Sequence record: MW822011 | Strand: one strand, 5' to 3' | Source of the DNA: Shigella phage TB004 | DNA: 64,000 nt | Shown: positions 12,846 through 23,682 of the stretch, in pieces | How the letters are laid out: every line of letters starts with the position of its first letter | How positions within the stretch are numbered: position 1 is the stretch's first letter | The notes under the pieces: generated by a model | Database searches by the model: none | The model's input: the letters and a program-made list of their open reading frames with translations, nothing else | Told to the model about the DNA's origin: nothing | Translations under genes and position numbers: made by a program

Positions 12846-13542
<697 letters not shown>

Positions 13543-13549
13543 TTTCACA

Positions 13550-13585
13550 AAGTTATTTACACGGGGTTTTAGTTGTGATACTATT
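13550..13585 (+). promoter_or_regulatory. T4-type early promoter (TTTACA, 17 nt, TACTAT with TGTGA extension)
   Basis: sigma70-like -35/-10 with T4 early consensus GTTTAC...TGnTAtaAT upstream of ipI. Confidence 0.5.
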
Positions 13586-13620
13586 ACCCTATCAAAACAA
13601 ATGAGTGATTGGAGAATAAA

Positions 13621-13893
13621 ATGAAAACATTTAAAGAATTTATCAATGAAGCTACTTTTAACGAAAAAGTAAAAATTAGTAAAGCTGTCAAGACTTTGAT
13701 TGCTGACATCAATTACCTATATGATATTGATTTAACTGACTATGTAACAGTTGGTAACAAACGTAACTTTTTCGTGTTTGACATCTCTGAACTTGACCAG
13801 AATCAAATTAACAACATTGAGCGTTTTGCTAATGATAAGGGTCTTCGTCATGAGTCAGCGGGTTATAAAAAATACGCAATTTATTTAAAATGA
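13621..13893 (+). CDS. ipI: internal protein I-like, N-terminal capsid targeting sequence MKTFKEFINEA
   Basis: ATG with GGAG RBS; N-terminus matches the MKTYQEFIAE-type targeting sequence of T4 internal proteins; position after 57B. Confidence 0.6.
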   Translation: MKTFKEFINEATFNEKVKISKAVKTLIADINYLYDIDLTDYVTVGNKRNFFVFDISELDQNQINNIERFANDKGLRHESAGYKKYAIYLK

Positions 13894-13925
13894 GTTTACT
13901 TTTAAATAGGGTTGTGGTACTATTA
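13893..13925 (+). promoter_or_regulatory. T4-type early promoter
   Basis: GTTTAC ... TACTAT cassette. Confidence 0.45.
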
Positions 13926-13953
13926 TCTCATCAAAATTAATTAGGAAAATAAA

Positions 13954-14262
13954 ATGAAAACATTTAAAGAATTTATCAATGAAGCGGCTGCGCCAAAGAC
14001 ATTCGTTATTAATACTCAGGCGAGTCTTGATGATGAATACGCGGAGGCAATTCTGAAGTCACTTGCTAAGAACGGTGTTGAAGTAATTGCTTCGGACTTT
14101 AAGAAAGGGGCTTCCGAGATGTTTATTTCTATAACTAAAGGATCTAAAGCTAAGATTAAATCATCATTCGGAGTTGCTCGTACCGATCAAATCGACAATC
14201 ATGACTTTAAACAAACTGGTGCTAAACGGCAGAATACAATTGCATCACGCGGAATAAAATAG
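13954..14262 (+). CDS. second internal-protein-like gene with identical targeting sequence (MKTFKEFINEAAAP...) and different cargo
   Basis: 102-aa ORF with the same leader and first 11 codons as ipI. Confidence 0.55.
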   Translation: MKTFKEFINEAAAPKTFVINTQASLDDEYAEAILKSLAKNGVEVIASDFKKGASEMFISITKGSKAKIKSSFGVARTDQIDNHDFKQTGAKRQNTIASRGIK

Positions 14263-14272
14263 TTTATAAAAA

Positions 14273-14306
14273 CAGTTTACTTTTAGATAGGGTAGTGATA
14301 CTATTA
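14273..14306 (+). promoter_or_regulatory. T4-type early promoter, near-identical to the 13550 copy
   Basis: GTTTAC...GTGATACTATTACCCTATCAA. Confidence 0.5.
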
Positions 14307-14332
14307 CCCTATCAACTACAGAGGAGAATAAA

Positions 14333-14518
14333 ATGAAACGTTGTGAATTAATTCGAAATGTTGCTATTGCAATTTCTGCTTCCGCTTTTAGTTTTTCAAT
14401 GTTTGTTGGATTTATATGCGGATTATTAACTACAGCAGAAAATGTGTTTTCACTTGTAGTAGCATTTTTAATTGGTTTAATTGCTATCGTTATGGATAAA
14501 ATTTCTAAAGGTGAATAG
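14333..14518 (+). CDS. small predicted membrane protein (61 aa)
   Basis: ORF with hydrophobic segments behind the same GGAGAATAAAATG leader. Confidence 0.4.
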   Translation: MKRCELIRNVAIAISASAFSFSMFVGFICGLLTTAENVFSLVVAFLIGLIAIVMDKISKGE

Positions 14519-14519
14519 A

Positions 14520-14900
14520 ATGTATAAAGTGTATGCGGATTATCAGGCTAATCCATCTGAAAAGCCAGGTTGTCAAATTGGATGGGCTCATGATACTTTG
14601 CTTGAAGCAGTAGATGCTGCTCAAAAATTGGGATATAAATATGTAGAGATTGTTCAACCGTCAGGAAAAGTTATTACTCTTGAAGAGTTCAATAACATTA
14701 AACCAAACTTTTTACTTTTTGCAGGTGATAATTATTATCCTCGTGGTGGATATGCTGATTTAATCGCGAAAGCCGCCACTGAAGATGAACTCCGTGATAT
14801 TATCAAAGAAAATGAAAACAAACTGATGTATGGTTCTAATCGCTTTGATTGGTGGCAAATTGTAAATGCCCATACTCATACTATTGTTGATGAAGGCTGA
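14520..14900 (+). CDS. hypothetical protein (126 aa)
   Basis: ATG-initiated ORF MYKVYADYQ... Confidence 0.45.
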   Translation: MYKVYADYQANPSEKPGCQIGWAHDTLLEAVDAAQKLGYKYVEIVQPSGKVITLEEFNNIKPNFLLFAGDNYYPRGGYADLIAKAATEDELRDIIKENENKLMYGSNRFDWWQIVNAHTHTIVDEG

Positions 14901-14902
14901 TA

Positions 14903-15190
14903 ATGATTCTTTATGCGAAAGTATCGTCCGTTGAAAATGGATATAAATATGATCAAGATGCGGCTAAAGCCTTGATTGATGATTATGGCATTTTAACATG
15001 TTTTGAAGTTGAAAAGGTTTACATTGACCGTTCATCTTCTCAAGTTAAATTAGTAAAGGAAGACCGTAAATTTAATACAGTAAATTTTGATTTCTTTATT
15101 GAAACAGAAAAAGGTCCTCTTGAATATGATATTTTCAAGAATCCTTTGGGTCTTGAATGCATCGTAAATATGTATTATCATAAATGGTAA
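14903..15190 (+). CDS. hypothetical protein (95 aa)
   Basis: ORF packed against the upstream gene. Confidence 0.45.
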   Translation: MILYAKVSSVENGYKYDQDAAKALIDDYGILTCFEVEKVYIDRSSSQVKLVKEDRKFNTVNFDFFIETEKGPLEYDIFKNPLGLECIVNMYYHKW

Positions 15191-15219
15191 ATATGCTTTA
15201 AGAAATATTTGTTATTATT
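15190..15219 (+). promoter_or_regulatory. candidate middle promoter (MotA-box-like ATGCTTTA, 15 nt, TATTAT) upstream of the tRNA cluster
   Basis: TGCTT motif and -10-like hexamer at appropriate spacing. Confidence 0.35.
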
Positions 15220-16262: not shown

Positions 16263-16817
16263 ATGAGAAGTGATGTAGACTGGGACCAAATTAATTTGGC
16301 TATAAAAGCTGGATTAATATACCGTGGTAATTTTGAAATAACACAAGAACTAATTGAAAATGTTGCTTTTCTTAAAATAACAGACAAGAAAAAATTCTTT
16401 TCTATGACTAAAGCCAAACGCTTGTCAATATGGAAAGTATTTTGTAGGACTGCCGCCCTAAATCTTTTGAAATTTAAAGATGAATTTGATATAGAAAAAA
16501 GCTATCGGCAAGCTTTCGTATACATAATGGTAGATACTACAAATCCTAATTATTATAAAATAGGAAGAAGTATAGAACCCGATGTTAGAGTTATAACAGC
16601 AAATACATTTTCACCGTTTAAAAGTTTTAAAATAGTATCATTTAGATATTCCCAGGATGCAGTAGAACTTGAAAAATATATGCACAGCATTTATAATCAG
16701 GACCATATAAATGGCGAATGGTTTTTCTTTCATGACATAAGTTCCATAGTTAAAAAATTAGATACTAAATCTACACAATTTGAAATACCAAATGAGAAGC
16801 CGGGTCGCTACCGGTAA
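16263..16817 (+). CDS. T5orf172/MUG113-like (GIY-YIG superfamily) domain protein, possible homing-endonuclease relative
   Basis: 184-aa ORF with FVYIMVDTTNPNYYKIGRS motif, directly after tRNA-Arg. Confidence 0.5.
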   Translation: MRSDVDWDQINLAIKAGLIYRGNFEITQELIENVAFLKITDKKKFFSMTKAKRLSIWKVFCRTAALNLLKFKDEFDIEKSYRQAFVYIMVDTTNPNYYKIGRSIEPDVRVITANTFSPFKSFKIVSFRYSQDAVELEKYMHSIYNQDHINGEWFFFHDISSIVKKLDTKSTQFEIPNEKPGRYR

Positions 16818-22212: not shown

Positions 22213-22246
22213 TTGTTTACTTTCTCCTAAAACTGTGATAGTATAT
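22213..22246 (+). promoter_or_regulatory. T4-type early promoter
   Basis: GTTTAC ... TGTGATAGTAT. Confidence 0.5.
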
Positions 22247-22281
22247 TCACAGTTACTAATTAAAATATTTAAAGGAAACAC

Positions 22282-22849
22282 ATGAAAACCTATAAAGAAT
22301 TTATCGCTGGAAAAGGCCAAAGGCATTAATAAAGATGAGTGGACTTACCGAGGAAACGGCTTTGACCCTAAAACAGCCCCTATTGAACGATACTTAGCTA
22401 CAAAAGCTTCCGACTTTAAAGCTTTCGCTTGGGAAGGACTTCGCTGGCGTACCGATCTAAATATTGAAGTTGATGGGCTTAAATTTGGCCATATTCAAGA
22501 TGTTGTTGCTAGTAACTTGGATGCAGCTTTTGTTAAAGCTGACGGTGACCTTCGTCGCTGGAATTTAAAACTATTCTCTAAACAGAAAGGCCCGGTGTTT
22601 GTGCCTAAAGCTGGTAAATGGGTTATTGATAATAAATTAGCTAAGGCTGTCAACTACGCTGGTCTTGAATTCGCCAAGCATAAATCATCATGGAAAGGTC
22701 TTGATGCAATGGCCTTCCGTAAAGAATTTGCTGATGTTATGGCTAAAGGCGGCTTTAAGGCAGAAATAGATACCTCTAAAGGTACGTTTAAAGACGCTAA
22801 TGTTCAGTACGCTTACGCTGTTGCTAATGCAGCCCGTGGTAATTCTTAA
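22282..22849 (+). pseudogene. ipIII: internal protein III-like gene interrupted by a +1 frameshift after codon 13
   Basis: MKTYKEFIAGKGQRH-stop, then an open shifted frame (KGINKDEWTYRGNGFDPKTAPIERYL...) to 22849; removing one C near 22317 restores a single ORF of about 189 aa. Confidence 0.65.
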
Positions 22850-22957
22850 TAAAGCCGAGTTCGAACCCGGTAATAGATAAATATAGAAACAGACAATTCG
22901 CACGCATGAATTGTCCCAAACTTAAAGAATAAAACTATTTACATTTAAAGGAAACAC

Positions 22958-23260
22958 ATGAAAACATATCAAGAATTTATTACTGAAGCGCGAGTGAGTG
23001 CAGGTAAATTAGAAGCCGCTATAAATAAAAAGGCCCATTCATTTCACGATTTGTCCGATAAAGACCGTAAGAAACTTGTAAGCCTTTATATTGACAAAGA
23101 GCGTATTCTCGCTCTTCCTGGCGCTAATGAAGGTAAACAGGCCAAGCCTTTGAATGCTGTCGAAAAGAAAATTGATAACTTTGCTTCTAAATTCGGTATG
23201 TCTATGGATGACCTTCAGCAAGCGGCTATCGAAGCAGCTAAAGTAATTAAAGGTAAATAA
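22958..23260 (+). CDS. ipII: internal protein II-like (100 aa) with MKTYQEFITEA targeting sequence
   Basis: Targeting-sequence N-terminus; size and position between ipIII and denV. Confidence 0.65.
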   Translation: MKTYQEFITEARVSAGKLEAAINKKAHSFHDLSDKDRKKLVSLYIDKERILALPGANEGKQAKPLNAVEKKIDNFASKFGMSMDDLQQAAIEAAKVIKGK

Positions 23261-23261
23261 C

Positions 23262-23294
23262 AGTTTACTTTCTCCTAGAATTGTGATAGTATAT
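23262..23294 (+). promoter_or_regulatory. T4-type early promoter, near-duplicate of the 22213 copy
   Basis: GTTTACTTTCTCCT...TGTGATAGTATATTCA. Confidence 0.5.
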
Positions 23295-23317
23295 TCATAA
23301 TTACTTGGAGGGGTAAA

Positions 23318-23682
23318 ATGACTCGTATTAATTTGACTTTAGTATCTGAACTTGCTGATCAACATTTAATCGCGGAATACCATGAATTGCCGCGTGTTTT
23401 TGATATAATTCGTAAACACGCGGCAAATGGAAAAATGATTATAATCCATGCAAATCAGCTATTAAGTTGAGTCAACAACGACTCGATGAAAAAATTTTAA
23501 TGAAGCCGCATTGGTATAAGTATTACGGCAAAAATATTTACATTCAAATAACATGGGAACAAGCTGGACCTCATGATTCTGTGAGGGATTCCCGCCAACC
23601 TGTAATAAGGTCGAGCCCAAGTGCGGTAATGGGTAAATACAGAAATGGACAATTCATGCGCCACGGAATGGCCCAAATTTAG
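23318..23682 (+). pseudogene. denV: denV (endonuclease V, pyrimidine-dimer glycosylase) with internal deletion and frame change
   Basis: N-terminal 46 aa [17 protein letters not shown]... then stop at 23470; C-terminal remnant SQQRLDEKI..KPHWYKYYGK in another frame. Confidence 0.65.

Follow-up and report, generated by a model that had tools for sequence, protein, structure and literature searches.

The DNA between gene 57B and tRNA.4 in the 64-kb stretch of phage DNA analyzed here (the window) is internal protein (IP) locus 1 of a Tequatrovirus, and it contains two already named genes, ip9 and ip7. The best explanation of the evidence as a whole, held with high confidence, is that these genes stand behind promoter-leader-tag cassettes that act both as expression signals and as recombination patches and that their products are cargo loaded into the head and injected. 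Variable IP loci with repeated promoter cassettes are already known and have been described since 1994; the wider spread of the Ip9 domain beyond T4-like phages is the sole modest addition.

The window was assigned to Tequatrovirus on the basis of identity and synteny. Positions 13000 to 15200 shared 97.8% identity with Salmonella phage Lv5cm and 97.6% with Escherichia phage HMD-9, and this segment was matched by 889 phage records. Gene order was as in T4 (2, 3, 1, 57A, 57B, the IP genes, tRNA.4, tRNA.3, tRNA.2, and then the tRNA cluster) and was also the same at this locus in RB32 and UFV-AREG1 (Table 1). The slot between 57B and tRNA.4, which ip9 and ip7 occupy, is one of two canonical IP loci, the other extending from e to denV. 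RB15 and RB32 carry the same genes in the same order and position with the same flanking repeat, at protein identities of 92 to 100% (Ip9, 92 to 94% to the proteins of both phages; Ip7, 100% to RB32 Ip7 and also to the RB15 protein). The gene at the left boundary is labeled 57B or RNA ligase in the T4, RB32, and UFV-AREG1 records; it codes for Acb1, an anti-CBASS nuclease, and together with the ip genes it can therefore be viewed as a small counter-defense cluster. At the right boundary, tRNA.4 is annotated in the same three phages, with the note “predicted membrane protein” in UFV-AREG1. Farther downstream, about 20 nt past tRNA-Arg, begins an ORF of 184 aa (16263 to 16817) that has a MUG113/T5orf172 (GIY-YIG-related) domain. 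In the corresponding T4 cluster, the homing endonuclease gene segB separates tRNA-Ile from tRNA-Arg. The window phage has 10 tRNAs (Met, Tyr, and Asn extra; Ile absent), compared to 8 in T4.

Table 1. Features of the two IP loci and of Ip9-domain genes in other phages. Positions are those of the window unless preceded by a locus handle (L006 to L009).
Feature	Position	Strand	Details
Gene 57B (anti-CBASS Acb1)	13087..13542	+	Pfam PF23474 Acb1, E = 2.6e-60; conserved left boundary of variable IP locus
Cassette 1	13543..13620	+	-35 TTTACA 13556-13561; TG 13576-13577; -10 TACTAT 13579-13584; SD GGAG 13611-13614
ip9 (90 aa)	13621..13893	+	CTS MKTFKEFINE 13621-13650; predicted gp21 cut after Glu10; short linker; ~72-aa alpha/beta domain
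Cassette 2	13894..13953	+	-35 GTTTAC 13894-13899; TG and -10 TACTAT 13918-13923; SD GGAA 13944-13947
ip7 (102 aa)	13954..14262	+	CTS 13954-13983; beta-alpha-beta-beta core; conserved basic C-terminal tail; phrog_2667, E = 2e-41
Cassette 3	14263..14332	+	-35 GTTTAC 14275-14280; -10 TACTAT 14299-14304; SD GGAG 14323-14326
tRNA.4 (61 aa)	14333..14518	+	Hydrophobic; no CTS; phrog_1692, E = 6e-35; conserved right boundary of locus
Second IP locus, same phage	22215..23305	+	ipIII disrupted (start 22282); ipII intact 22958-23260, CTS MKTYQEFITE
Tag-less stand-alone Ip9-domain genes (72-74 aa)	L006:3004-3222, L007:2992-3216		Kagunavirus UTEC10, Seuratvirus SHIN8
Ip9 domain in large proteins	L008:994-3261, L009:193-3567		Beside primase genes; Kuttervirus maane, phage LHE287

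The sequence-only reading had placed nearly the same promoter and leader before the genes starting at 13621, 13954, and 14333, with the tag missing from the third, and both points were borne out. Three copies were found, confined to the locus, with a mean column identity of 78% when the three upstream regions were aligned together; tRNA.4 shares the promoter, Shine-Dalgarno (SD) site, and ATGAAA with the ip genes, not the tag. Each cassette spans about 75 bp and follows the promoter pattern GTTTAC, ~17 to 18 nt, TGnTACTAT, and then an SD/ATGAAA leader, with leaders ending in GGAGAATAAAATGAAA or GGAAAATAAAATGAAA. The -35 element (G/A)TTTAC was located at 13555, 13894, and 14275, and the TG-extended -10 element TACTAT was located at 13579, 13918, and 14299. 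A 34-nt promoter core is present three times (13572, 13911, and 14292; later copies 74 to 79% identical to the first), a 49-nt block is common to copies 2 and 3 (84%), and a 42-nt block that takes in the SD, ATG, and initial ten codons has 98% identity when 13611 to 13652 is compared with 13944 to 13985 (third copy, 69%). The 21-nt core GTGRTACTATTAYCYYATCAA, searched with up to 3 mismatches, had three matches in the window, every one at IP locus 1, compared to 0.02 expected by chance; three matches were reached in 0 of 100 shuffles. A generic sigma-70 scan flagged cassette 1 only (extended -10), with cassettes 2 and 3 recognized by eye as the T4 early pattern (8/12 versus the E. coli consensus). 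The T4 late-promoter consensus TATAAATA was not found within IP locus 1, so the supply of Ip proteins to proheads would rest on early transcripts or read-through. No MotA box was found inside the locus, and a scan for intrinsic terminators found none.

The -10 element is enclosed by an inverted repeat in two of the three cassettes. Predicted hairpins were found in cassette 1 (13563 to 13590; -11.5 kcal/mol, z = -3.8) and cassette 3 (14286 to 14313; 12 bp, -16.4 to -16.8 kcal/mol, z = -2.9 to -6.8), and no stable hairpin was found in cassette 2 (fold, -1.9 kcal/mol). When 50 distinct cassettes gathered from the loci compared here were folded individually, 39 gave a fold at the -10 element of -5 kcal/mol or below, with a mean z of -4 versus shuffles. 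The stems vary in sequence and register (GATGAGGTA/TACCTCATC, GATAGGGTA/TACCCTATC, and GGTCTATAG/CTATAGACC), and because cassette types use different registers, a fixed-register covariation test on the 50 cassettes did not rise above shuffles (65.6% versus 64.5% of cells paired). Judged on the per-sequence folding, the hairpin is a likely but not proven feature of the cassette. An RNA started at the promoter of the cassette itself would not include the 5' arm, so the hairpin would be possible only in read-through RNA or in the DNA itself.

Both ip ORFs open with MKTFKEFINEA, as had been claimed from the sequence alone, together with a match to the T4 capsid targeting sequence (CTS) and complete divergence thereafter; the comparisons agreed on each count. 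The BLASTP alignment of Ip9 and Ip7 covers residues 1 to 11 only, and the homology of the two genes at the DNA level ends at about the predicted cleavage site (the codon after it). The tag was aligned with those of T4 IPII and IPIII (MKTYQEFIAEA), IPII in the window (MKTYQEFITEA), T4 IPI (MKTFKEFTSTTTPVSTITE|A), and RB15 Ip5 and Ip8. Residues F4, F7, I8, and E10, followed by Ala, are those set by experimental CTS rules, in which targeting depends on positions 4 (aromatic) and 7 and gp21 processing depends on positions 8 and 10 (Glu) (Mullaney and Black 1996, as summarized in PMC9026906); that summary also gives the 10 residues alone as sufficient for loading foreign proteins in T4. In AlphaFold models of both Ip9 and Ip7, the tag is a separate N-terminal helix, and its key residues are kept over 18 unrelated cargo families in many lineages, with unrelated residues right after it.

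Packaging, cleavage, and injection of Ip7 and Ip9 are modeled on experiments with T4 proteins. The tag would steer the precursor into the prohead scaffolding core, and the gp21 prohead protease (gene 21 lies outside the window) would cut after Glu10 (I-N-E|A); the mature proteins (~9.3 and 9.9 kDa) would then be retained in the head and injected along with the DNA. A literature search for virion proteomics or N-terminal processing of Ip7 and Ip9 returned nothing. That either or both are mainly ordinary early cytoplasmic proteins, with the tag a vestige carried with the shared leader, is very improbable. The early-type promoters without a late consensus nearby would fit such a role, as would the tag-less Ip9-domain genes that stand alone in early/replication regions of Kagunavirus and Seuratvirus; however, the retention of the key tag residues on 18 unrelated cargo families, the ability of the 10 residues to load foreign proteins in T4, and the end of ip9/ip7 homology at the cleavage site all argue for head loading.

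The modularity of the locus was examined in 40 loci, comprising 36 retrieved from viral contigs with 57B as bait and those of T4, RB32, RB15, and UFV-AREG1. These loci contained 65 tag-bearing ORFs, which fell into 18 mutually unrelated cargo families after removal of the first 12 residues. Most were located in the 57B-tRNA.4 slot, with 0 to 4 units per locus: ipI-ip9-ip7-ip8 in UFV-AREG1, ip5-ip9-ip7-ip8 in RB15, ip5-ip9-ip7 in RB32, ipI alone in T4, and ip9-ip7 in both HMD-9 and the window. Relative to RB15, the window is without the upstream ip5/ipI unit and without the downstream ip8 unit; it is a two-unit subset of the four-unit array of RB15 and UFV-AREG1. Positions 13527 to 14315 are collinear with RB15 324 to 1102 (94%), and the match picks up again at RB15 1374 to 1448; this jump places the junction left by loss of the ip8 unit within 14292 to 14315 (the -10/hairpin core). 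The junction for the loss of the upstream unit lies in about 13543 to 13570, so that both junctions relative to RB15 and UFV-AREG1 fall within the repeat. The suggestion that the cassette is swappable was therefore supported by the 18 cargo families, by the two-of-four-unit subset, and by the position of both deletion junctions inside the repeat.

Exchange was also evident within cassettes. Cassette halves are reassorted, such that the promoter of T4 tRNA.4 is that of RB32 ip9, and identical halves are attached to different genes in T4, RB32, RB15, UFV-AREG1, and the window. Convergence of T4 early promoters and ribosome sites on one consensus, with no shared descent or recombination, could in principle produce similar upstream regions, since early promoters of the T4 type abound (30 GTTTAC sites on the + strand of the window). 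This explanation is extremely improbable: the 21-nt core is restricted to IP locus 1 within the 64 kb, the likeness spans the spacer, hairpin arms, and leader and also 30 coding nucleotides in two copies, and identical halves recur on different genes in the five phages just named. The tag codons of ip9 in the window are of the ip7 type (41 of 42 nt identical), whereas ip9 of RB15, RB32, and UFV-AREG1 encodes MKTYQEFI(S/N)EA (MKTYQEFISEA in RB15-type ip9), which indicates conversion between adjacent cassettes. The ip9 leader also differs: AAAACAAATGAGTGATTGGAGAATAAA (13594 to 13652) is unlike the ip9 leader of RB15, RB32, and UFV-AREG1 and in part resembles the RB15 ip8 leader. Together, the odd leader and the ip7-type tag codons point to fine-scale mosaicism inside the cassette. 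In the favored explanation, the cassette has one role as the source of expression signals and another as the source of short homology patches at which phage recombination deletes, inserts, or exchanges entire tag-plus-cargo units. Gene identity, repeat architecture, modularity, and recombination junctions were observed directly in the window and the loci compared with it.

In the second IP locus of this phage, a promoter and leader-CTS blocks are likewise duplicated. A 43-nt promoter block precedes ipIII and denV (91%), and a 43-nt leader-tag block is present at ipIII and ipII (91%). A further 53-nt block (75%) follows ipIII and recurs after the denV remnant (repeats within 22215 to 23305 and 22847 to 23655). 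ORF ipIII (22282 to 22849) looks like a fresh pseudogene in which an 11-bp stretch after MKTYKEFIA is gone; the missing 11 bp are TGAAGCTTCTG in phage vB_VIPECOOM01 and CGAAGCTTCTG in T4T. The loss takes out the codons of the cleavage site and causes a frameshift, with a stop after 15 codons and the remainder intact in the +1 frame. The disruption could be a real loss of Ip3 anti-GmrSD function or an assembly error. The adjacent denV (endonuclease V; 23318 to 23682) is cut to 50 aa, and its C-terminal end, …RLDEKILMKPHWYKYYGKNIY, is in another frame from about 23467, which indicates an internal deletion or rearrangement.

The two cargos of locus 1 differ in distribution. The Ip9 model (pLDDT 89) consists of the tag helix (residues 4 to 14) followed by an alpha-beta-beta-alpha-beta-beta domain (residues ~19 to 90). 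This domain was ~50% identical to tag-less 72-aa stand-alone proteins of Kagunavirus and ~44% identical to a tag-less 74-aa Seuratvirus protein, and it was also found at or near the C terminus of phrog_3867 proteins of 755 and 1,124 aa in Kuttervirus maane and phage LHE287. The tag and linker of Ip9 end where the tag-less homologues begin, and the tag-less occurrence of the domain in other genera suggests that the tag was added to a preexisting module. Labels of “internal head protein” on siphovirus copies of the domain look like annotation transfer. It is tentatively proposed that Ip9 is a widespread ~72-aa phage accessory domain that was captured by T4-like phages and fused to the tag, giving a preloaded injected effector. 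If this were true, its target would be a defense or a host function that very different phages all encounter, and not a nuclease with specificity for glucosyl-hmC-DNA; the negative GmrSD screens would be explained, and the finding would show where to look.

An exhaustive HMMER search placed Ip7 in T4-like phages only, with 3 clusters out of 1.84 billion representatives and no gain of distant relatives. Its AF2 model has a pLDDT of 64. The tail at residues 76 to 102 (14179 to 14259; …HDFKQTGAKRQNTIASRGIK) is nearly invariant in homologues yet predicted to be disordered, a combination that would fit a binding motif better than a spacer. The “ip7 protein” of Escherichia phage OLB35 (P0017; 77 aa) is an apparent chimera: its N-terminal part corresponds to the Ip7 core, and its last 35 residues correspond to the end of Ip9; the ORF is annotated without a tag.

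A counterdefense role of IPs is the standard working hypothesis of the field and is not new. In T4, each of Ip1, Ip2, and Ip3 blocks a separate type IV restriction enzyme of the GmrSD family, and they do not cross-protect (PMC12373910), in line with the type IV protection by T4 IPI noted in the sequence-only reading. By analogy, Ip7 and Ip9 may be premade inhibitors of host defenses against modified DNA. Tests of ip4 to ip10 against GmrSD variants gave no reproducible inhibition, and an ip7/CLS_011 signal could not be repeated (Silas et al. 2025, PMC12373910). In BLASTP comparisons, neither mature protein matched IPI*, IPII, or IPIII below an E value of 0.7. Pfam scans of Ip9, Ip7, and tRNA.4 gave sub-threshold noise only, PDB sequence searches with Ip9 and Ip7 found no solved-structure relative, and fold matches of both were generic, with no hint of function. 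A physical role for packaged Ip7 and Ip9, as basic counter-ions or organizers of packed DNA or as ejection aids with no inhibition of defenses, is unlikely. Mature Ip7 is basic (pI 9.65, with a Lys/Arg-rich tail predicted to be disordered), as is IPII in the window (pI 9.66), and neither the ip4 to ip10 screens nor the folds speak for inhibition; mature Ip9, however, is near neutral (pI 8.2), each of the three T4 IPs proved to inhibit a specific nuclease, the Ip9 domain functions in phages that lack such a head-loading system, and 0 to 4 units drawn from 18 unrelated cargo families are more in keeping with an arms race than with a structural requirement.

One of the systems most similar to this locus is T4 IPI/IPI*, the GmrSD-CT596 inhibitor, a small packaged and injected protein encoded in the same slot with the same type of promoter, probable stem-loop, and leader. 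Its first seven residues (MKTFKEF) are identical to those of the window tag; it differs in having a 19-residue propeptide cut after ITE and a mature protein unrelated in sequence to Ip7 and Ip9. T4 IPII and IPIII (inhibitors of GmrSD-ECOR21 and GmrSD-ECOR17, respectively) carry the 10-residue CTS MKTYQEFIAE|A, which shares 8 of 11 residues with the window tag when the following Ala is counted, and their locus has the same duplicated promoter and leader-tag design as locus 1 of the window; they occupy the other locus, with promoter variant GTGATAGTATATTC and cargos unrelated to Ip7 and Ip9. The PeSL (promoter-early stem-loop) cassettes of RB49/phi1-type phages likewise repeat a promoter and stem-loop between small accessory genes and were proposed to drive modular shuffling via homologous recombination (Arbiol et al. 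2010, PMC2839356). According to the same study, the T-even IP elements are analogues, not homologues, of PeSL; the IP elements differ in having T4 early promoters, AT-richer stems, and a repeat that continues into coding sequence (the tag). Repoila et al. (1994), as cited in PMC2839356, described PeSL-like elements at both highly variable IP loci, with T4 early promoters and AT-rich stem-loops that may explain IP shuffling. T-even IPs have also been described as diverse defense proteins with only the CTS in common (Rao and Black 2010, PMC3012670).

The locus is a textbook case in which a large virulent phage exchanges the accessory proteins that it injects by means of a short head-loading tag and a repeated promoter block, and the same CTS tag underlies the engineering of T4 for protein delivery. 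The window adds no new principle; it gives a clean two-cassette example and a fresh tag exchange between neighboring cassettes. Among the IPs, only Ip1, Ip2, and Ip3 have known targets, all of them GmrSD-family type IV nucleases, and the hint of a life of the Ip9 cargo outside T4-like phages could guide the search for its target.
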